This document shows positions 34,688 through 45,818 of a stretch of DNA of 64,000 bases, one piece after another (within the stretch, counting starts at the first letter, position 1; each line of letters starts with the position of its first letter). The DNA comes from an uncultured Mesohalobacter sp. (GTDB lineage: Bacteria > Bacteroidota > Bacteroidia > Flavobacteriales > Flavobacteriaceae): NCBI GenBank assembly GCA_964577705.1, contig CAZOAD010000007.1, positions 2,621 through 66,620 on the forward strand. Direction: 5' to 3'. The position numbers and the translations under genes are program-made. Below the pieces are notes generated by a model. That model saw only the letters and a program-made list of their open reading frames with translations. It was not told the origin of the DNA and ran no database searches.

Positions 34688-37600
34688 TTATTCTTGATTC
34701 AAAAAAGGCTCAACTTTCTCTTTGATTTCTTCTACAATACTAGGATCCAATAAAGTTGATACATCTCCTATTTGACCTGCTTCACCAGAAGAAATTTTTC
34801 TCATAATTCTTCTCATAATTTTCCCGCTTCTTGTTTTTGGTAAACCAGAAACGAAGTGAATGCGATCTAACTTTGCAATTGGACCAATTTTACTAGAGAT
34901 CAGTTGATTGATTTCTTTGCTTAAGTTTTCTTTATTTCTGGATTCGCCATCATTTTTCAAAATCACAAAACCAGCTAAAGCATTTCCTTTTACATTATGG
35001 GGGAAACCAATAATAGCAGATTCAGCTACAGCTGGATGTTCATTGATCGCATCTTCAATAGGCGCTGTACCCAGATTATGTCCCGACACGATGATGACAT
35101 CATCTACCCTACCTGTAATTCTGTAGTAGCCCACCTCATCGCGAAGTGCTCCATCACCGGTAAAGTAAACATTTTTGAATGCAGAAAAGTAAGTATCCTT
35201 ATAGCGTTGATGATTTCCATAAACAGTCCTGGCCATACTGGGCCACGGATGCTTAATGCATAACCTTCCGGAAACCGAATTACCTTCAATTTCTTTTCCG
35301 TTTTCATCCATCAATGATGGCTGAATTCCGGGAAGTGGTAGTGTAGCATAAGTTGGCTTGGTTGGAGTCACGAAAGGTATTGGGGATATCATGATACCGC
35401 CCGTCTCCGTTTGCCACCAGGTGTCCACAATTGGGCATTTCTTCTTTCCAATATTTTCATTGTACCAGTTCCAAGCTTCCTCATTAATAGGCTCTCCAAC
35501 ACTTCCTAAAACTTTTAAAGAAGATAAATCATACGTATTGACAAATTCAATATCCTGTTTTGCAAGAGCTCGAATAGCTGTTGGAGCAGTATAAAACTGG
35601 TTAACTTTGTACTTGTCTACAATATCCCAAAACCTGCCATAATCTGGATAAGAGGGGACACCTTCAAACATCAATGTAGTTGCTCCATTGAGAAGAGGTC
35701 CGTAGACAATGTAGGAGTGTCCGGTAATCCAACCGATATCTGCTGTACACCAGTAGACATCATTTTCTTGATATTGAAATACATTTTTGAAAGAAAAAGC
35801 GGTATACACCATATATCCAGCGGTGGTATGAACCATACCTTTAGGTGTTCCAGTAGAACCGGAAGTATACAAAATGAAAAGCATGTCTTCCGCATCCATT
35901 ACTTCTGCCTCACATTTGTCATCGACTTGCTTTAATTCTTCATGTAACCAAAGGTCACGATTTTCAACCATTTCAATTTTTGAAAAAGTGCGTTTAGCCA
36001 CCAGCACACATTCTACTGAAGGTGTACTTTCCAAAGCTTCATCGACGATGCCTTTCAAATCAATGCTTTTGGATCCTCTGTAAGATCCATCTGAAGTAAT
36101 CACCATTTTACAGTCGGAGTCATTTATCCTTGAGGCTAAGGCTGAAGCTGAAAACCCGGCAAAAACGACAGAATGCACCGCTCCTGTCCTCGCACAAGCT
36201 AAGGTAGCAATCGCCAATTCTGGTATCATGGGTAGGTAAATGCAAACTCGATCTCCCTTCTGAATACCGTTTTTCTTCATCACATTTGCCATCTTATTCA
36301 CTCGCTTTGATAACTCAGCATAACTAATGTGAAGTGCTTCTTCGTCAGGATTATTGGGTTCCCAAATGATGGCTGTTTTATTGCCTCTTATATTCAAATG
36401 CCTGTCAATAGCATTTTCAGTGATGTTAAGTTGGGCGCCTTCAAACCAAGTTGCCTTGGCTTCTTCAGGATCCCATTTCAATACGGTATCCCATTTTTTT
36501 CTCCATTGAAAATTACGCTCTGCAATGGTGCTCCAGAAGTTTTCTGGGTCGTTTTGAGATATTCTATACACATCCATATACTTCGCCAGCGAATCGATGT
36601 TGTAGTAACTTTTGGTTAATGCCTTTAAAGATTGTGTCACCTGATTTTTATTGGTACTAAATGCCCCAATTTTTTGCTGACTGAAGGTTTCAATTATTTC
36701 ACTGATCACCATTGGATCTTCAATAGTTGACGGTAAACTATAAGGCTCGCCAGCTACAAGTTTTCTTAAGGTTCTTCGCAAAGTCTTACCACTTCGCGTT
36801 TTGGGGAGTCTTTTCACCATAACTACGTTTTTCAAGGCAGCAATGGGACCAATTTTATCTCTGACAAGTTGAATGATTTCAGTTTCCATTTTATAAGACT
36901 CGTAGTTTTCTTCGCCAGTTTTTGGAACTACGATGGCCAAGGGAACTTCACCTTTCAATTCATCATGAAGTCCAACTACAGCACATTCAGCAACAGAAGG
37001 GTGCTGAGACACCACTTCTTCTAAAGCTGCTGTAGAAAGCCTATGCCCGGAAACGTTGATCACATCATCTATTCTTCCTGTTATAAAAACGTAGCCCTCC
37101 TTATCGATATAACCGCCATCGCCAGAGAAGTAGTATCCTGGGAACTTACTCAAATAGCCGTTTTTATAACGTTCATGATTCTTCCATAGGGTTTGCATGA
37201 AACCAGGGGGCAGAGGTAATTTGGAACAAATGTAACCTTCAGTATTTGCTGGCAAAACCTCTCCATCTTCGGAGAGAACTTGAAGGTTATAGCCTGGGAC
37301 TGGTTTCCCTGCAGATCCTGGTATAACTGGTAAAGCATCCATACCCATGTAGTTAGCCACAATAGGCCAACCAGATTCTGTTTGCCACCAATGGTCAATA
37401 ACAGGAATTTTTAAATGTTTTTCTGCCCATTTCAAAGTAGTTTCATCACAACGCTCACCCGCTAAAAATTGATACTTAAGTGAAGAAATATCATACTTTT
37501 TGATAAACTTTCCTTCCGGATCTTCTTTTTTTATAGCTCTGAATGCAGTTGGAGCTGTGAACATTACATTTACTTTATGGTCTTCAATCACCCTCCAAAA

Positions 37601-38551
37601 GGCTCCAGCATCTGGTGTCTTTATGGGTTTGCCTTCATAGATAATCGTTGTATTTCTTTGTATCATTGGAGCATACACAATATAACTATGACCTACAACC
37701 CAACCCACATCGGATGCAGCCCAAAAGGTATCGCCAGGCTGAGTCCCATAGATATTTTTCATCGAATATTTGAGACCAACGGCATAGCCACCTGTATCTC
37801 TCACTACCCCTTTTGGAGATCCTGTTGTTCCTGAAGTATATAAGATATAAGACGGATCTTTGGATTTTAAAGGCACTGCATCTGCCGGTTTGGCTTTTTC
37901 AAGCAGTGATAAATAATCAATATCGTAAGGTTTTTGTTCAAATTCTACCCCCAGCTTTCTATTGAAAACTACCACTTTTTCAACCTTATGGATAGCCTTT
38001 TCAATAGCTTCATCCACCATAGACTTGTAAGCAATAAGTCTATCCACTTCAATTCCTGATGTAGCGGTAATGATGACTTTTGGTTTTGCATCATCAATTC
38101 TCATCGCCAATTCATCTGGTGCAAAGCCTCCAAAAACCACCGAATGTATGGCTCCTATTCTGGCACAGGCTAACATACTAAACAAGGAGTGAGAAATCAT
38201 CGGCATATAAATAATGACCCGGTCTCCTTTCTCTACACCCAGTTCCCTGAGTCCTCCTGCGAGTTTAGATACTTTTTCTAAAACCTCGTTATAGGTATAT
38301 TTCACCTGTTTTTGCCTTACCGCAGAGTCGTAGATAAGTGCCAATTCATCGCCGTACCCATCTTCTACATGTTGATCTATGCACAAGTAACTTAAGTTGG
38401 TTTCACCATCTGGGAACCAATGGTAAATACCTTCAGAAGTTTGCTCCATTGCTACAGTTGGTGCTTTAAACCACTTGATGTTCTTGGACTCTTGCATCCA
38501 AAATTCCTCTGGTTGTTCAATACTTTTTTGATAAGCTTCTTTATAATTCAT
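34688..38551 (-). CDS. acs: Tandem fusion of a PrpE-like propionyl-CoA synthetase (aa ~1-630) and acetyl-CoA synthetase Acs (aa ~645-1287)
   Basis: Two full motif sets: YTSGTTGSPKG / YTSGSTGTPKG, WVVGHSY / WITGHSY, DHWWQTESG / DTWWQTETGG, PKTRSGKT / PKTRSGKI. Single open frame. Confidence 0.92.
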   Translation of the reverse strand: MNYKEAYQKSIEQPEEFWMQESKNIKWFKAPTVAMEQTSEGIYHWFPDGETNLSYLCIDQHVEDGYGDELALIYDSAVRQKQVKYTYNEVLEKVSKLAGGLRELGVEKGDRVIIYMPMISHSLFSMLACARIGAIHSVVFGGFAPDELAMRIDDAKPKVIITATSGIEVDRLIAYKSMVDEAIEKAIHKVEKVVVFNRKLGVEFEQKPYDIDYLSLLEKAKPADAVPLKSKDPSYILYTSGTTGSPKGVVRDTGGYAVGLKYSMKNIYGTQPGDTFWAASDVGWVVGHSYIVYAPMIQRNTTIIYEGKPIKTPDAGAFWRVIEDHKVNVMFTAPTAFRAIKKEDPEGKFIKKYDISSLKYQFLAGERCDETTLKWAEKHLKIPVIDHWWQTESGWPIVANYMGMDALPVIPGSAGKPVPGYNLQVLSEDGEVLPANTEGYICSKLPLPPGFMQTLWKNHERYKNGYLSKFPGYYFSGDGGYIDKEGYVFITGRIDDVINVSGHRLSTAALEEVVSQHPSVAECAVVGLHDELKGEVPLAIVVPKTGEENYESYKMETEIIQLVRDKIGPIAALKNVVMVKRLPKTRSGKTLRRTLRKLVAGEPYSLPSTIEDPMVISEIIETFSQQKIGAFSTNKNQVTQSLKALTKSYYNIDSLAKYMDVYRISQNDPENFWSTIAERNFQWRKKWDTVLKWDPEEAKATWFEGAQLNITENAIDRHLNIRGNKTAIIWEPNNPDEEALHISYAELSKRVNKMANVMKKNGIQKGDRVCIYLPMIPELAIATLACARTGAVHSVVFAGFSASALASRINDSDCKMVITSDGSYRGSKSIDLKGIVDEALESTPSVECVLVAKRTFSKIEMVENRDLWLHEELKQVDDKCEAEVMDAEDMLFILYTSGSTGTPKGMVHTTAGYMVYTAFSFKNVFQYQENDVYWCTADIGWITGHSYIVYGPLLNGATTLMFEGVPSYPDYGRFWDIVDKYKVNQFYTAPTAIRALAKQDIEFVNTYDLSSLKVLGSVGEPINEEAWNWYNENIGKKKCPIVDTWWQTETGGIMISPIPFVTPTKPTYATLPLPGIQPSLMDENGKEIEGNSVSGRLCIKHPWPSMARTVYGNHQRYKDTYFSAFKNVYFTGDGALRDEVGYYRITGRVDDVIIVSGHNLGTAPIEDAINEHPAVAESAIIGFPHNVKGNALAGFVILKNDGESRNKENLSKEINQLISSKIGPIAKLDRIHFVSGLPKTRSGKIMRRIMRKISSGEAGQIGDVSTLLDPSIVEEIKEKVEPFLNQE

Positions 38552-38563
38552 AACTGTGTATTT

Positions 38564-38938
38564 TTAAGATTTTTGTATTATTAATTCACTTACAGTGCTA
38601 AGAAGTTTTTTCATAGAAAACGGTTTTTTGATGTAGGCTTTAGCACCGAGAGTCATGGCTTTATCTATATCGCTTTCTTTCTGTTTAGCACTTATTATAA
38701 CAGTTTGTGTTGTTTCCTTTAGAGTTTTATGCTGTTTCAGATGTTGTAAAACTTCGTAGCCATCCACTTTAGGCATCATGATGTCCAGAATGACCAAGTC
38801 AGGCTCCAGTTTTTCTGCAAGTGCAATCGCTTCTTCACCATCTCTAGCAATAAATACCTCATAACCATTTTTTCTCAACGTGTATTCTACAGCCATTATA
38901 ATATTAGGCTCATCATCTACAACTAGAATCTTTTTCAT
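38564..38938 (-). CDS. Stand-alone response-regulator receiver protein
   Basis: ILVVDDE, LDIMMP (phospho-Asp), IISA, YIKKPF; no output domain. Confidence 0.93.
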   Translation of the reverse strand: MKKILVVDDEPNIIMAVEYTLRKNGYEVFIARDGEEAIALAEKLEPDLVILDIMMPKVDGYEVLQHLKQHKTLKETTQTVIISAKQKESDIDKAMTLGAKAYIKKPFSMKKLLSTVSELIIQKS

Positions 38939-41631
38939 AGGTCTCGTTTTGGTAATTTAACAATCATTTCAGCACCAACACTTACATTGGATTCCGCATA
39001 TATTTCACCTTTATGCATCTCTACAATTTGTTTGCAAATCGCTAGTCCAAAACCACTTCCAATCGGTTTTTTAAAGGTTTGATTCTTGGATTGATAAAAC
39101 TTTTTGAAAATCAAATGAATATCTTCTTCTGGAATTCCCTTGCCATTATCCTTTATAATACATAAGATTTCTTCTGAATTTTCCTCCAGAAAGACTGTTA
39201 TGGTTCCGTTCTTATCTGGAACAAATTTTAATGCATTGGAGAGTAAATTAGTAAAAACTTGTAACATTTTACTATAATCAAATTCGATTCTAACACTGGG
39301 GTTAGAATTGAAACTCACCTCTATGTTTTTTCTTTCGGCTATGCTGCTAATCCCATGAATAGCATCTTCAATACAAGCATTCAAGCTTTGAGACTTCAAG
39401 GTCAATTCGTCTCTCCCAGATGCCATTTTTTCAAGATCTAGGATATCATTGATCAAAACATTTAAGCGTTCTGTATCTTGAATAATATTGCCTAAAAATT
39501 TCTGCTTTAGTTCCATCGGCATCTCCTCTCCTTCCGAAAGAACTTCCGAACTGGCTTTGATGGACGTAATTGGCGTTTTGAGTTCATGAGCCACCGTATC
39601 TAGAAAGTCATCTTTTAGCTGATCTTGAATTTTGAGCTCTTCATTGGCCAACTTCAGTTCTGAAGTCAGTTTGATTAATTTTTGAGATTGTTCTTCCAGT
39701 GACTTATTAACTGATATGGTTTCTCTGTTTTCTTCAAGAATTTTAAGGACTTCAACCAATGATACGGGCTTCTCTTTGGCCACATTAGAAATTAAAATTT
39801 TTGCAGAGGCGCTCCCCACTGCTCCAGTAAGTAAGCGTTCCGAAAAATTAATAAATCTCGCATCTGCAAGTTTATCCTCTGGATTTACGGCATAGCGTTT
39901 TCTAAAAACGCGCAAGGCTTTTTCTGCTTTCACTTGTCCAAGGAAACGAACCAATATATTTTGAATATCCTCAACGTAAGCTTCCCCTTTCCAGACGTAA
40001 GCATTTTCTTTAAGCTCAACAACCTTCTCTGTGTTTACAAACATTTCACCGTAATTACGCTCTCTGTAGTTTCCTTTTTTGATGACAGACAAAATTAGAT
40101 AAGCCCCGGTATTCAATAGTAAACTCCAGTACAAAGCATGGTTTACAGGATTTAAGAAATCTATACCAAAAAGCGTATAAGGTTTAAGCAGGCTATTTCC
40201 AAACAGTCCATTGGTTACAAACTGATTATTACTAAACACATTTTCAGTAAAAAATGGAAGTAAATACGTGAATACGATCATACACATTCCTAAACTAATC
40301 CCAACTTTAGAACCTAGAGCAGAGCCTCGATTCCAAAACATGCCAATGAAAAAACTTGGCGCTAATTGAGCGATAATCAAAAATGAAATGAGTCCAATCG
40401 AAAATAAAGACACCTCTGGATTGAATGACGCATAAAGTAAATAAGCCAGAATTATCGAACTAAAAACACTTACTCTCCTTATGTTTTTGATCGTTTTTTC
40501 ATTATTGAATGATTTTCTTTTAGTAAAGGTTTTGATAAATCCATAAGGGATGATAAGATTGTTACTGAGCATTGTAGAAAGCGCTACTGTAGAAACTACC
40601 ACCATAGAAATTACTGCTGAAAGACCTCCCAGAAAAACCATAACTGCTAGCCAATGATCGTTGAAATGCAAAGGAATAAGTAGAGTAAAATAATCTGCGT
40701 TGGCTTGCTCTCCCAGAATCAATAAGCCTCCCCAGGCTATAAAAATTACAAAGACGTTAAAGAGTAACAAATAAAGCGGGAATAGCCAAATTGAAGTTTT
40801 AAGCTGTTTTCGGTTACTGAATTCAACAACCGATGTTTGGAATTGGCGTGGTAATAAAAAAATGGCTAAAAATGAGAGTGCAATACTAAAATACCAGTTG
40901 ATTCCTCCACTTAATCCACTTAGTGTACTCAACTGCTTTACATCTAAACTGAGACTTGCCTGCTCATAAATATCTGAAGTGCCATCGAACACATAAAAAG
41001 TCACATAAATCCCCACTATGAGGAAAAAAGTCAGTTTCATGACAGATTCAGCTGCGACAGAAAACATCACTCCAGTTCTATTTTTGGAGGCATCTAAAGA
41101 TAGGGTCCCAAAAAATGAAGCAAATATTGCTAAAATCAAGGCAATGTAAAATGTGGAATCTGTAATTACAGAAGAACCTTCAATTCCTAAAGAGGAAGTA
41201 GTGACAATTTCAAATGTTTCAGAAATGGCTTTTAACTGAAGAGAGATATAAGGAATAATGCTGGCAGCACATACAATAGTAACTATTGCTCCAAGAGATC
41301 TACTGTTGCCATACCGAAGAGAAATAAAATCTGCTATGCTGGAAACATTGTAAACCTTAGACAATTGAATTATTTTTTTCAGTACAACAATCCATAGAGG
41401 AGCGGCTATAATTGGGCCTAAATAAATAGTAAGAAATTCTACTCCAGATTTTGCGGCCATACCAACGCTGCCATAATAGGTCCACGCTGAGCAATAGACA
41501 GCAAGCGAGAGTGCATAAACAGCTGGATGAGTCACCAGTTTTGATCCTTTATTTTTTTCAGCAAAAAAGGCGATGAGGAACAAAATTCCCAAGTAGATAA
41601 AAATGAGTGCTATAAGCCCAATTTTACTCAT
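38935..41631 (-). CDS. SLC5 (sodium:solute symporter)-STAC-histidine kinase, CrbS/CbrA-like
   Basis: YALSLAVYCSAWTYYGSVG, IADFISLRYG, PYISLQLKAI, FLLPRQF; STAC-like FSERLLTGAVGSASAKIL; HisKA AHELKTP; HATPase NLLSNALKF, DNGKG, GSGFGL. Confidence 0.92.
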   Translation of the reverse strand: MSKIGLIALIFIYLGILFLIAFFAEKNKGSKLVTHPAVYALSLAVYCSAWTYYGSVGMAAKSGVEFLTIYLGPIIAAPLWIVVLKKIIQLSKVYNVSSIADFISLRYGNSRSLGAIVTIVCAASIIPYISLQLKAISETFEIVTTSSLGIEGSSVITDSTFYIALILAIFASFFGTLSLDASKNRTGVMFSVAAESVMKLTFFLIVGIYVTFYVFDGTSDIYEQASLSLDVKQLSTLSGLSGGINWYFSIALSFLAIFLLPRQFQTSVVEFSNRKQLKTSIWLFPLYLLLFNVFVIFIAWGGLLILGEQANADYFTLLIPLHFNDHWLAVMVFLGGLSAVISMVVVSTVALSTMLSNNLIIPYGFIKTFTKRKSFNNEKTIKNIRRVSVFSSIILAYLLYASFNPEVSLFSIGLISFLIIAQLAPSFFIGMFWNRGSALGSKVGISLGMCMIVFTYLLPFFTENVFSNNQFVTNGLFGNSLLKPYTLFGIDFLNPVNHALYWSLLLNTGAYLILSVIKKGNYRERNYGEMFVNTEKVVELKENAYVWKGEAYVEDIQNILVRFLGQVKAEKALRVFRKRYAVNPEDKLADARFINFSERLLTGAVGSASAKILISNVAKEKPVSLVEVLKILEENRETISVNKSLEEQSQKLIKLTSELKLANEELKIQDQLKDDFLDTVAHELKTPITSIKASSEVLSEGEEMPMELKQKFLGNIIQDTERLNVLINDILDLEKMASGRDELTLKSQSLNACIEDAIHGISSIAERKNIEVSFNSNPSVRIEFDYSKMLQVFTNLLSNALKFVPDKNGTITVFLEENSEEILCIIKDNGKGIPEEDIHLIFKKFYQSKNQTFKKPIGSGFGLAICKQIVEMHKGEIYAESNVSVGAEMIVKLPKRDL

Positions 41632-41825
41632 TAATCTGAATATTTTTTAAGAATTAAAAAGGAAATACTTATGCCTAGCGCCCAAATGATGAAAATAAAG
41701 AAATATAACAACGGAAACCCCAGTACCGAAGAAACCTGGTTAAATGCAAAAATCAATGGTACATTGAACAACAAGATCAACCCAAAGCTCAAAAAAATAA
41801 GTTTTTGTTGATGTCTTTTTTTCAT
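41631..41825 (-). CDS. Small two-TM protein translationally coupled to the SLC5 kinase
   Basis: 64 aa, two hydrophobic helices (LFNVPL, LGFPLLYFFIF); TAATG stop/start overlap with the kinase. Confidence 0.75.
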   Translation of the reverse strand: MKKRHQQKLIFLSFGLILLFNVPLIFAFNQVSSVLGFPLLYFFIFIIWALGISISFLILKKYSD

Positions 41826-41911: not shown

Positions 41912-43702
41912 TTAATGCTCAGTAGCTTCTCCTGCTCCGCTTGGTATTCTTATGTTTTCAACAATCTCCTGAACGTCCTGAGGTGTTTCTTTGGTGAATT
42001 GGCAAACGATAAGTGAAACCACAAAGTTTACAATCATAGCAATAGACCCGAAACCTTCTGGAGAAACTCCAAACCACCAGTCTTTTTCAGTACCACCACC
42101 AAAGAGATCAAATTTGAATTTCAGCATATAGAATAACATCAAACATACCCCTACAATCATACCTGAAACAGCTCCTTCTCTGTTCATTTTTTTATAGAAT
42201 ATACCCAACACAATTGCTGGGAAAAACGAGGCAGCCGCGAGACCAAAAGCTAGCGCAACTACTGCCGCTACAAAACCTGGAGGGTTAATCCCGAAATAAC
42301 CGGCAATAACTACTGCTCCAGTTGCCGAAAGACGAGCAGCTATTAATTCTCCTTTATCGCTAATGCTTGGCTTTATTATTTTCTTGATCAAGTCATGTGA
42401 AACAGACGATGAAATCACTAAAAGCAATCCTGCAGCTGTAGAAAGCGCTGCAGCCAAACATCCAGCAGCTACCAGAGCAATTACCCAATTTGGTAATTCT
42501 GCAATTTCAGGATTAGCCATCACCATAATGTCATTGTCTACATAGAGTTCGTTAGCATTATCTGATGGATTAGTTACTATTCGCTCTCCACTATTTCCCA
42601 ATGTACCTTCGGCAAATTCAGGAGTTTTCCCATCAATTGCTTTACCCCCATTTTTATTTGGTCCTAAATATTGAATTTTACCATCATTGTTTTTATCGGC
42701 CCAGCCTATTAATCCTAAACTCTCCCAATTGGTAAACCACTCTGGTAATTCTTCATAAGGCTTTTCACTAACCGTATCGATCAGGTTAAGTTTTGAAAAA
42801 ACAGATACAGCAGGAGCGGTGATGTAAAGTATTGCGATAAACAGCAAGGCATAACCAGCAGATTTTCTTGCATCTTTTACTCTTTTCACTGTGAAAAATC
42901 TTACAATGACATGAGGGAGTCCTGCAGTTCCTACCATAAGTGCTAAAGTAATAGCTATAACATCAATCATACTTTTGGAGCCATCTGTATATTTATTAAA
43001 GCCTAACTCTTGACTTAGCCCATCTAACTTATCTAAAAGATATACATCTGGTTGGCTAACTACAGTATCTCCCATACCTAACATAGGGATTGGATTTCCA
43101 GTAAGTTGAATAGATATAAAAATAGCTGGAACCATAAAGGCAAAAATCAACACGCAGTACTGAGCCACCTGAGTATAAGTGATACCTTTCATTCCTCCTA
43201 AAACGGCATAAAAAAGAACAATCACCATCCCGATGTAAACTCCGGTATTAATTTCTACTTCCAAAAATCTTGAAAATACGACGCCTACCCCACGCATTTG
43301 ACCAGCTACATATGTAAAGGATACAATAAGCGCACAAAAAACGGCAACAATTCTAGCGGTCTTTGAGTAATATCGGTCACCAATAAAATCGGGAACTGTA
43401 AACTTTCCAAATTTTCTGAGGTAGGGCGCCAACAATAGAGCTAGAAGCACATAGCCACCAGTCCACCCCATCAGGTATGTAGCACCATCATAGCCCATAA
43501 AAGCTATAATACCTGCCATCGAAATGAAAGAGGCAGCAGACATCCAGTCTGCAGCAGTAGCCATTCCGTTAGCGATTGGACCAACGCCACCTCCTGCAAC
43601 ATAAAAATCCTTAGTAGATCCAGCACGAGACCAGATGGCAATTCCGATGTAAAGTGCAAATGAGGCACCTACAATAATATAAGTTAATAGTTGAGCATCC
43701 AT
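41912..43702 (-). CDS. Sodium:solute symporter, ActP-like (acetate/monocarboxylate permease)
   Basis: FYVAGGGV, NGMATAADWMSAASFISMAG, GGMKGITYTQVAQY, GTAGLPHVIVRFFT, AAALSTAAGLL. Confidence 0.92.
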   Translation of the reverse strand: MDAQLLTYIIVGASFALYIGIAIWSRAGSTKDFYVAGGGVGPIANGMATAADWMSAASFISMAGIIAFMGYDGATYLMGWTGGYVLLALLLAPYLRKFGKFTVPDFIGDRYYSKTARIVAVFCALIVSFTYVAGQMRGVGVVFSRFLEVEINTGVYIGMVIVLFYAVLGGMKGITYTQVAQYCVLIFAFMVPAIFISIQLTGNPIPMLGMGDTVVSQPDVYLLDKLDGLSQELGFNKYTDGSKSMIDVIAITLALMVGTAGLPHVIVRFFTVKRVKDARKSAGYALLFIAILYITAPAVSVFSKLNLIDTVSEKPYEELPEWFTNWESLGLIGWADKNNDGKIQYLGPNKNGGKAIDGKTPEFAEGTLGNSGERIVTNPSDNANELYVDNDIMVMANPEIAELPNWVIALVAAGCLAAALSTAAGLLLVISSSVSHDLIKKIIKPSISDKGELIAARLSATGAVVIAGYFGINPPGFVAAVVALAFGLAAASFFPAIVLGIFYKKMNREGAVSGMIVGVCLMLFYMLKFKFDLFGGGTEKDWWFGVSPEGFGSIAMIVNFVVSLIVCQFTKETPQDVQEIVENIRIPSGAGEATEH

Positions 43703-43714
43703 AGTTTTGGTTTT

Positions 43715-43975
43715 TTATTCGTCGTATCCGTATTTTTTATCCAGTTTATTCATCAATCTTACGTACACGAAAATGAGAATTACGAATACATAAATTGAAC
43801 CTTGTTGTGCGAACCAAAACCCGAGTTTAAATCCTCCCAAAGTAAATTGATCGAGCCAGTCCTTAAAAAGAATTCCTGCTCCATAAGAGACTGAAAACCA
43901 AATACTGAGGAGTATGTATAAATACCTCACATTTTCTTTCCAGTAGGCTACTGCGTTTTTGTCTTTGTTTTTCAT
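43715..43975 (-). CDS. DUF4212 small subunit of the solute symporter
   Basis: YWKEN, GFKLGFWFAQQGSIYVF, MNKLDKKY. Confidence 0.9.
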   Translation of the reverse strand: MKNKDKNAVAYWKENVRYLYILLSIWFSVSYGAGILFKDWLDQFTLGGFKLGFWFAQQGSIYVFVILIFVYVRLMNKLDKKYGYDE

Positions 43976-43986
43976 TGTTTTAAGAT

Positions 43987-45204
43987 TTATAGGTATATCA
44001 TTGCTTGCAAATTAATTCTATTGGTAGTTTGTCCTAAAAAACGCTCATTCTGAAATTCCAAGGTTAACTTTGAATTATGACCATTCAAATAGGCATTGAT
44101 ACCCAGTCCAAATATTGTTCTATCTTGATTGGAGGCATCTATAAAAGTATGGTTGTAAGATGTATAAGGCTGAATTCGAGTAGAGGAAATAGATTTTGGC
44201 AACAAATATCCAAGATGAGCGTACAGCATTTCTCCTGAAGAATAAGGTCCCAAAAGGTAATTAGTTCCGTAGTCATTGGACTGAAATACAGCATAACCCG
44301 TTAAAGAAGAACCATTACTCCCAACTGGCGTGTCGTAAAAAACATCGGCTGCAAAGAGATTTACATTTTCTCCTGTAGGTTGATCATTATCAAGTATAAC
44401 GGAGCCATTGGGGTGATGAAAAAAACCAGCACCAATATTAAATATGCGTTGTGTACCCAAATAAGTTCCCACCTTATAAGGAAGAAAATTACTTTCCAGG
44501 TTGAAAAAATTATAAGCGAAATATCCCGTATAAGTTTTACCAGCTTCGGCTGTACCAAGAAGATTGGCTCCTTGATATGTTGCACTAGTACTCGAAAGGG
44601 ATCTAGCATCGAGACTATTTATTAGGGCTTCGTTGATGGCAACATTATATTGAAGCTTTCCAAAATTACCTTTGGCAAAGATTCCAATATGTCTTGCAAA
44701 TTGATCTGTAAGTCCTAAAGTGGCCCAGGACGCTCGATTATTGTCCAAGGTCATCAAGTTAAGTGTACCTTGTGAATTTAATCTTGATAAACCATTCCAG
44801 TAATGCAGTCCACCACCTAAAACATGCTGTTCTGTTACATTATACTGTGCCCAGGCATCGTGCATAAAAACTTGAGGAGCACCATCTGCACCAACTGGAT
44901 CCATATTGGTAGCATTTAAACTGTTGATGCCAATGTGAGTTAAAACAAGAAAATCTTTAGTGATTTGACCATAAACCAGCAGCCTTGCTCTTCTTAATTG
45001 AAAAGAAACATCCGCTTGGTCTTCTGGTCGAGAATCCGAATAATTGGCCTGGGCTTGAACCCAGGTTAAAATTCTGATGTACTTATTATCGTTGTCTTCA
45101 AACTTTATTTTGAAGCCTCCTTTATAATAAGGTGACCCTTGAGAAAAAGCATTATTACTAGATAACGCGATAATTAATACTAAAAATGTAATATAATGTC
45201 TCAT
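43987..45204 (-). CDS. Outer-membrane porin-like protein
   Basis: Signal peptide; FQLRRARL, MHDAWAQY, GLHYWNGLSR, GHNSKLTLEFQ; beta-strand C-terminus. Confidence 0.7.
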   Translation of the reverse strand: MRHYITFLVLIIALSSNNAFSQGSPYYKGGFKIKFEDNDNKYIRILTWVQAQANYSDSRPEDQADVSFQLRRARLLVYGQITKDFLVLTHIGINSLNATNMDPVGADGAPQVFMHDAWAQYNVTEQHVLGGGLHYWNGLSRLNSQGTLNLMTLDNNRASWATLGLTDQFARHIGIFAKGNFGKLQYNVAINEALINSLDARSLSSTSATYQGANLLGTAEAGKTYTGYFAYNFFNLESNFLPYKVGTYLGTQRIFNIGAGFFHHPNGSVILDNDQPTGENVNLFAADVFYDTPVGSNGSSLTGYAVFQSNDYGTNYLLGPYSSGEMLYAHLGYLLPKSISSTRIQPYTSYNHTFIDASNQDRTIFGLGINAYLNGHNSKLTLEFQNERFLGQTTNRINLQAMIYL

Positions 45205-45316
45205 CTCGTAACAAGTTTTTAATTTTTTACAGTATTCCTTACTGATAACTTGAAACGAACTTCAATCAATTTATTTGTTAAATAAAATACAATATATATT
45301 TGTGTAAAGAGTATAT

Positions 45317-45730
45317 CTAATCTTTAAACCGTTCCCATTTGATGACCATAAATTTATCACCAAGTTCAGTAACAATCATTCCAGAACCTTTGGTATTTTC
45401 TGAAGAGGAAAAATACTGGCCAAGCTCACTCTGACTTAATATCTTGTAGGTGGGATGCATATCTGTATTTTCAACCTTCTGTATATTGTACTTCTTAACC
45501 CAGTTCATCACACTCACATGAGAAATCCCTAAAATCCGCTCGATTTCACGATAAGTTAAGCCTTCCAAATAAAGCTGCAAAGCTTTGGTTACATAGTATT
45601 GATCGATCTTCTTCCCCAGCTTATTCACTGTAAAAAAGTAATTACAAGATTTGCACTTGTAGCGTTGACGGTCGTTTACAATACCACTTTTAACAATTTT
45701 ATCTGATTGACATTGCGGACAAAATTTCAT
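45317..45730 (-). CDS. IS1 InsA-like Zn-ribbon + HTH protein with a unique C-terminus; no transposase core
   Basis: CPQCQSDKIVKSG...QRYKCKSC ribbon; ALQLYLEGLTYREIERILGISHVSVMNWVK HTH. Confidence 0.8.
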   Translation of the reverse strand: MKFCPQCQSDKIVKSGIVNDRQRYKCKSCNYFFTVNKLGKKIDQYYVTKALQLYLEGLTYREIERILGISHVSVMNWVKKYNIQKVENTDMHPTYKILSQSELGQYFSSSENTKGSGMIVTELGDKFMVIKWERFKD

Positions 45731-45755
45731 ATATATTTATTTTGCATAAATATAT
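45731..45755. promoter_or_regulatory. Perfect inverted repeat abutting the start codon of the InsA-like gene
   Basis: ATATATTTAT-TTTGC-ATAAATATAT. Confidence 0.4.
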
Positions 45756-45818
45756 CAATTTAGCAACATATTATAAATGAATTTTAAAAAAACAAAAACA
45801 ATACAAGATTGGATAATC

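Follow-up and report, generated by a model that had tools for sequence, protein, structure and literature searches.

The donation by a transposon of both a transcription factor and the sites to which it binds is a familiar idea from eukaryotes. Transposases domesticated as regulators include SETMAR and FHY3/FAR1 in eukaryotes and the TnpB-derived TldR in bacteria, and an exapted form of Cas12f is reportedly among the regulators that arose from catalytically dead mobile-element proteins. In the terminal repeats of the insertion sequence IS1, the inner part is the InsA-binding domain, while the tip is the cleavage determinant. InsA itself is described as binding both terminal repeats and repressing its own expression (PMC12428005). 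A second point of comparison is the CrbS/CrbR system, which is described as activating acs and actP in Gammaproteobacteria (PMC5715377). A term search of the main text of that paper gave no match for Bacteroid-, Flavobacter- or transposase, and a literature search conducted mostly outside subscription journals found no description of the domesticated IS1 ORF-A family treated here as a regulator.

The gene considered here lies in a window of 64,000 nucleotides (the whole stretch of DNA analysed, from contig CAZOAD010000007.1 of an uncultured Mesohalobacter sp.), and its features are listed in Table 1. Comparative analysis of this gene, referred to as the ORF-A gene, makes it quite probable that the ORF-A of a two-ORF IS1 element, having lost the catalytic half, now works as a host transcription factor for an acetate/short-chain-acid uptake locus, likely through boxes derived from its own terminal repeats.

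Table 1. Position of the ORF-A gene, its candidate sites and the genes of the uptake locus within the window.
Feature	Positions	Strand	Remarks
Box 1	45751..45766	minus	Positions 5-20 of the IS1 left terminal repeat, without the GG tip; likely autoregulatory operator (candidate)
-7-like promoter octamer	45747-45754		Across the box 1/box 2 junction
Box 2	45732..45747	minus	Direct repeat, 19 bp after box 1
Domesticated IS1 ORF-A (InsA-type) gene	45317..45730	minus	137 aa
Zinc ribbon	45644..45721	minus	Residues 4-29; four invariant Cys (C4xxC7/QRYxC26xxC29); domain search and model
Helix-turn-helix	45491..45601	minus	Residues 44-80; Pfam HTH matches and model
Remnant of first catalytic motif	45425..45430	minus	Asp replaced (S101); D in 3/119 loci, next Glu kept in 118/119
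Former A7-A9 frameshift run	45395..45406	minus	Now broken
Segment homologous to un-shifted ORF-A tail	45338..45397	minus	Residues 112-131; part of predicted domain 91-134
Right box plus second TATA half-site	45291..45317	plus	Inverted and degenerate, directly 3' of the stop codon; candidate right-terminal-repeat remnant
Predicted porin-operon promoter	45256..45287	minus	-33 TTTT (45284-45287), 20 nt, non-consensus -7 GAAGTTCG (45256-45263)
Porin-like gene	43987..45204	minus	First downstream gene in 112/119 loci
DUF4212 symporter small subunit	43715..43975	minus	
VC_2705-family sodium/solute symporter (SSS)	41912..43702	minus	
Conserved hydrophobic ORF	41631..41825	minus	64 aa, ahead of kinase
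SLC5-fused histidine kinase	38935..41631	minus	CrbS-like architecture
Stand-alone receiver protein	38564..38938	minus	Phospho-acceptor residues intact
Fused propionate-CoA ligase-like (PrpE-like)/acetate-CoA ligase (Acs) gene	34688..38551	minus	

An earlier note, made from the bare sequence, had read a zinc ribbon, a helix-turn-helix (HTH) and a C-terminal segment in this ORF, and all three are present. The N-terminal ribbon, of the IS1/IS1595 type, matches NF050000 (NCBIfam) above cut-off, and the HTH is recognised both by Pfam matches and in the structure model. The IS1 transposase model NF033558 aligns with residues 4-126 at 82 bits, under its cut-off of 100, and a Foldseek search with the whole model yielded no match at E≤0.001; the sole fold matches of the whole model were to the HTH (up to Z 6.8). 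In one metatranscriptome (small word share), contigs lie on the neighbouring genes and none on the ORF-A gene, although contigs cannot show absence.

As first described, the gene sits directly upstream of the porin, DUF4212 and transporter genes in the same orientation, with 113 nt to the porin-like gene. The transporter had been called actP; it is indeed an SSS protein, but its best score is to the VC_2705-family symporter and it remains under the ActP cut-offs. This arrangement was followed across Bacteroidota in 119 loci (52 from genome searches and 67 that remained of another search once 13 duplicates or short flanks had been removed), related loci and lineages not being independent samples in this or any other locus and box count given here. 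Of 105 loci with 6 kb or more of flank, 103 have the SLC5 kinase and the lone receiver downstream of the ORF-A gene; two loci have the gene without the kinase. The transporter in between varies (SSS/DUF4212 in 97 loci, MFS in 19, an AceTr/SatP acetate transporter in L085), and the ORF-A gene keeps its place at the head of the cluster while transporters swap. Like the CrbS/CrbR system of Vibrio and Pseudomonas, the locus links an SLC5-fused kinase to acs and an acetate transporter (PMC5715377). Unlike that system, it has a receiver devoid of any DNA-binding domain, and the cluster is headed by a protein that derives from a transposase.

Several details of the locus deserve mention. The PrpE-like and acetate-CoA-ligase genes form a single ORF of 1287 aa here and of 1284 aa in L140, and are separate in most other genera. 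The membrane-type ORF that abuts the SLC5 kinase is conserved and matches no NCBIfam family; by analogy, it may be a small subunit comparable to DUF4212. In L030 (10256-11428) and L086 (8400-9701), the place of the porin-like gene is taken by an unannotated protein of 390-430 aa.

The ancestry of the gene can be traced through its mobile relatives. Many IS1 ORF-A proteins were retrieved when 1.84 billion representatives were searched with a profile. The closest, P0145, is the ORF-A of a two-ORF IS1 element and shares 55% identity with the window's protein over 130 aa without gaps. The catalytic DE motif is kept in 14 of the 83 loci examined. In these 14 IS loci, A7-A9 runs are present and InsB is encoded in the -1 frame, complete in 12 of them and truncated in L246 and L314. 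Both 26-bp terminal repeats, spaced about 740-770 bp, occur in ten, and several show 8-bp target duplications. A tree of 42 rows, rooted on single-ORF IS1 proteins and built without the divergent stand-alone proteins, unites the 13 family members in a single clade (100/100) with a long stem, within a 99/99 group that includes seven IS rows. At the level of sequence, these comparisons demonstrate that the ORF-A gene descends from a two-ORF IS1 element.

On the other hand, the hallmarks of a transposon have gone, as the earlier note had stated for the DDE/InsB frame, the slippery site and the target duplication. In 118 orthologues, the median length of the -1 frame before a stop is 4 codons, an A-run of at least 7 occurs in 2 of these 118 as against 14/14 IS loci, and no target duplication was identified at the locus. 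Complete terminal inverted repeats starting with GG are also absent, the inner 16 bp being kept and the GG tip found in 0/116 left boxes and 0/58 right boxes. A search of the own genome for a full IS1 element found none.

The distribution of the gene is that of a host function. It is present in a single copy in its own genome, where the sole other match to the protein (25%) reads like the first ORF of an IS3-type element. Matches were obtained in 26/41 genomes of the genus, 17/151 of the family and 21/401 of the phylum, always with one orthologue per genome; the 17 in the family sample comprise 13 at ≥71%, one at 45% and three weak transposase matches. Orthologues across Bacteroidota share 59-94% identity. 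An example of a mobile relative is found in genome G584, where a match at 28%, resembling an IS1595-type transposase, is present in 14 copies. Seven within-genus pairs give dN values of 0.026-0.067 with synonymous sites saturated, indicative of purifying selection, and the identity of the ORF-A protein tracks that of the kinase (Spearman 0.67, n=101). Orthologues are neither multi-copy nor randomly placed nor followed by an InsB frame; they occur as single copies in a fixed context. Given one copy per genome, fixed synteny, low dN at saturated dS, nesting within two-ORF IS1 (99/99) and the loss of catalysis and of InsB, the domestication proposed in the earlier note is well supported. The database labels borne by homologues, "IS1 family transposase" or "transposase-like", would fit a recent or neutral IS1 remnant, a reading that retains practically no probability: it is refuted by the presence of one copy only, by strong purifying selection, by synteny conserved across orders and by the correlation with the kinase. 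The single-copy ORF-A gene is a host gene under purifying selection, and the widespread annotation as "IS1 transposase" is wrong for this domesticated family.

The sequences that flank the gene are equally informative. Upstream, the conserved element is TGCTAAWWWNNTATA, which occurs twice, as two 16-bp boxes in direct orientation at a distance of 19 bp. In a training set of 32 loci from outside the genus, 29 pairs were found, all with this distance, and among held-out loci a 19-bp pair is seen in 67/67, versus 0-2 at the other spacings of 16-25. The spacing is retained even where the pair lies 49-100 nt from the start codon, and the pair in the window is the only one above threshold in its genome. 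The box matrix, which never saw an IS, matches best at left-repeat position 5 in 14/14 IS loci. This match has p≤0.003 in 11 of them and is weak in the three most distant; two pairs among the 14 are duplicates. Conversely, when a matrix is built from 21 ends of the most closely related intact IS1 elements, 45751-45766 comes top among the 5,785,660 positions of the genome. Significant matches to this matrix precede the gene in 116/119 loci, and its scores in 23 distant IS loci are ≤3.4. A repeat finder also reported 26-nt inverted arms around the ORF (45294-45319/45730-45755, 73%). The earlier note had seen no recognisable IS1 terminal repeat, yet the flanks do hold its inner part. From the matches of the IS-end matrix and the absent GG, the flanking boxes are read as remnants of IS1 terminal repeats whose inner part was kept and whose tips were lost.

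The same note had drawn attention to a perfect 10-bp inverted repeat abutting the start codon. It exists (45731-40/45746-55), but its meaning as an operator is unsupported: a perfect inverted repeat of at least 10 bp is kept there in just 10/118 loci, and for 2,609 10-mers of the genome a perfect inverted partner lies no more than 10 nt away. Of the proposal that the gene was exapted as the transcription factor of the locus, the domestication and the presence of candidate promoter sites hold, while the palindromic operator must give way to a direct repeat with a 19-bp period. In this respect the locus also departs from the Gammaproteobacterial system, in which CrbR is described as activating at an imperfect inverted repeat (PMC5715377). 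In most loci, an octamer of the TATATTTA type lies across the border between the two left boxes. This arrangement points to autorepression, of the kind described for InsA. Box 2 may in part reflect promoter and ribosome-binding constraint.

Compared with InsA, the family shares the zinc ribbon and HTH, an ungapped identity that includes the post-slippage tail, boxes that correspond to the inner part of the terminal repeats, and a geometry suited to autorepression. Unlike InsA, it has no InsB, slippery run, catalytic Asp or GG tips, it is a single-copy gene under host selection, its left box is doubled at 19 bp, and its tail is conserved and predicted to fold.

On the other side of the gene, the AATATATATT that the earlier note placed at 45291-45300 before the porin gene is present. 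In the own genome, the right box has a matrix score of -3.1 and is recognised by its position; across the 119 loci, the inverted IS-end matrix is significant after the stop codon in 60. This box probably derives from the right terminal repeat. Alternatively, it may have arisen by duplication, which is conceivable because L100 has a direct-orientation pair there and boxes at acs occur in both orientations.

The predicted promoter of the porin operon lies beyond this box. The Bacteroidetes promoter consensus has been described as TTTG/TAnnTTTG (PMC2483708). Where the right box adjoins the stop codon (79 loci), a -7-like octamer was found in 71, matching the consensus in none of them and starting with G in 62; TTTK lies 19-21 nt upstream in 66, and the octamer is exactly 54 nt from the right box in 64. 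A weak promoter combined with a fixed upstream site suggests activation. A sigma-70 promoter scan at the locus remained at chance level, and no terminator was found. It could be argued that the ORF-A protein is an autoregulated repressor only, which dampens the locus, with the conserved sequence after the stop codon being mainly promoter and another factor providing activation. This view is consistent with the description of InsA as a repressor (PMC12428005), with the overlap between the second half-site and the -33 element, and with a right box that is weak in half of the loci. However, the main right box is placed upstream of the -33 element, at a fixed distance and not on top of it, and a consistently non-consensus -7 is the pattern expected of an activator-dependent promoter, so that we regard repression alone as unlikely, if still a serious contender.

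Box scores of at least 10 are reached upstream of the ORF-A gene in 105/110 regions, of the porin gene in 53/109, of acs in 7/74 and of other genes in 3/485; most acs promoters (67/74) are therefore boxless, whereas those of L092 and L086 are examples with a box. These few acs boxes, together with the lack of clear genome-wide enrichment of single boxes in the genus, point to a small regulon. A genus-wide count of the exact pattern did not clearly separate genomes with the gene from those without it. An excess in G584 was rejected as a sign of boxes, being due to an unrelated repeat of 165-190 bp; this non-coding, MITE-like repeat (L326-L334) has short terminal inverted repeats and at least 12 copies in the fetched regions, and a search of the own genome gave no match to it. 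In L094, L095 and L099, a second acs gene is divergent from the ORF-A gene and shares its upstream region, and L094 shows an additional box near this divergent acs.

The same boxes match the ends of intact IS1 elements, one of them on a Flavobacteriaceae plasmid (score 21.2), and InsA is described as suppressing transposition in trans (PMC12428005). Both points would agree with a protein retained to suppress related IS1 elements in trans, in which case its location within the acetate cluster would be a frozen insertion site. We consider this improbable, as the gene is lost along with the cluster, the linkage survives transporter swaps, boxes occur at acs promoters and no full IS1 was found in the own genome. 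Since boxes derived from the terminal repeats occur at the promoter of the ORF-A gene itself as well as at those of the porin gene and, in some cases, of acs, a regulatory role of the ORF-A protein at the acetate locus is likely.

The C-terminal segment has a different origin from the rest of the protein. Residues 112-131 align in register with the ORF-A tail behind the slippery run, the same DNA encoding the start of InsB in -1. Of 12 distinct IS tails scored with a profile of 74 distinct family tails, 11 give a higher score in the un-shifted frame than in that of InsB (shuffle p≤0.004 in 8/12); among further ORF-A proteins p<0.05 is reached in 20/32, one of them mis-anchored. AlphaFold2 predicts a beta-alpha-beta-beta arrangement for residues 91-134, with a pLDDT of 88 for the whole protein and 86 for the domain alone. 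According to these alignments, the segment is a descendant of the un-shifted ORF-A tail that is now conserved and predicted to fold. In the model, the first strand and the helix would derive from the segment around the catalytic motif and the hairpin from the overprinted tail. In a fold search with this domain alone, the best match (Z 5.0) was a small alpha/beta arrangement of a generic kind, which shows neither a known nor a new fold. Relaxation of this domain upon kinase loss is suggestive only, based on two loci that rank lowest and third lowest of 119.

The co-occurrence of gene and kinase bears on the signal to which the regulator might respond. Among the 35 good-quality genomes of the genus, 23 have both and 12 neither; in the family sample, the ORF-A gene is present in 13/13 kinase-positive genomes. 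Co-occurrence is thus near perfect in Flavobacteriaceae. In the phylum sample, 20/35 kinase-positive genomes have the gene, and 14 of the 15 that do not are outside the class; other classes keep the receiver without it, and loci from kinase-positive genomes devoid of the gene mostly still have a lone receiver. In such loci (L125-L139), the kinase or receiver is often adjoined by PAS-containing proteins, membrane-anchored DEDDh exonucleases or a sigma-54 response regulator. The receiver of the window is a stand-alone protein of 124 aa without a DNA-binding domain, and this lack of an output domain makes the ORF-A protein the obvious candidate output. A search of longer proteins showed no receiver fusion among the 18 matches listed, which is weak evidence. 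As a tentative proposal that falls somewhat short of an even chance, receiver and ORF-A protein could be direct partners.

The most plausible sequence of events would begin with the insertion of an IS1 copy upstream of the uptake genes. A deletion of about 330 bp of InsB would then have left the left repeat, ORF-A and the right repeat. The ORF-A protein would bind the tandem boxes and repress its own promoter, in the way InsA acts at the left repeat. From the inverted box, whose centre lies ~60 nt ahead of the predicted start, it would likely activate the weak promoter of the porin operon. In some lineages, it may act at acs promoters too. The new C-terminal domain might carry oligomerisation or a signal input, possibly from the receiver protein. 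In its most complete form, a whole IS1 would have become, at its site of insertion, the transcriptional output of a two-component system for acetate sensing, with the left repeat as autorepression operator, the right repeat as activator site of the uptake operon, and the by-product frame behind the frameshift as a folded domain receiving the signal of the receiver; we regard this full scheme as speculative and rather doubtful.

Like SETMAR, FHY3/FAR1, TldR and exapted Cas12f, the ORF-A protein would be a catalytically dead mobile-element protein reused in gene regulation, here as a candidate. Unlike them, it comes from a bacterial DDE-family element that was apparently reused in place, with its own ends as candidate operators, and, unlike in the RNA-guided cases, the proposed recognition is between protein and DNA. 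Each step of the donation can be read in bacterial sequence, with near relatives of the ancestral element extant at 55% identity. In this gene it can also be traced how a conserved domain that is predicted to fold arose in part from an overprinted frame. For acetate uptake in Bacteroidota, where no DNA-binding domain is attached to the receiver, the gene supplies a candidate regulator and an exact candidate operator.

Related modules were observed elsewhere. Many stand-alone ORF-A-like proteins (P0155-P0289, e.g., P0162, P0178, P0186, P0191, P0206, P0217 and P0232) have no catalytic motif and keep a tail-like hydrophobic segment. They could not be placed in an 80-row tree computed in quick mode, although their scatter over it hints at repeated independent domestications. 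In G469 (L055 and L056), two more stand-alone Zn-HTH genes of 117 and 99 aa lie outside the acetate locus, with no InsB seen downstream. Finally, a similar Zn-ribbon(-HTH) module is fused to regulators of the TetR and LacI families in P0126-P0128, P0135, P0136 and P0138.
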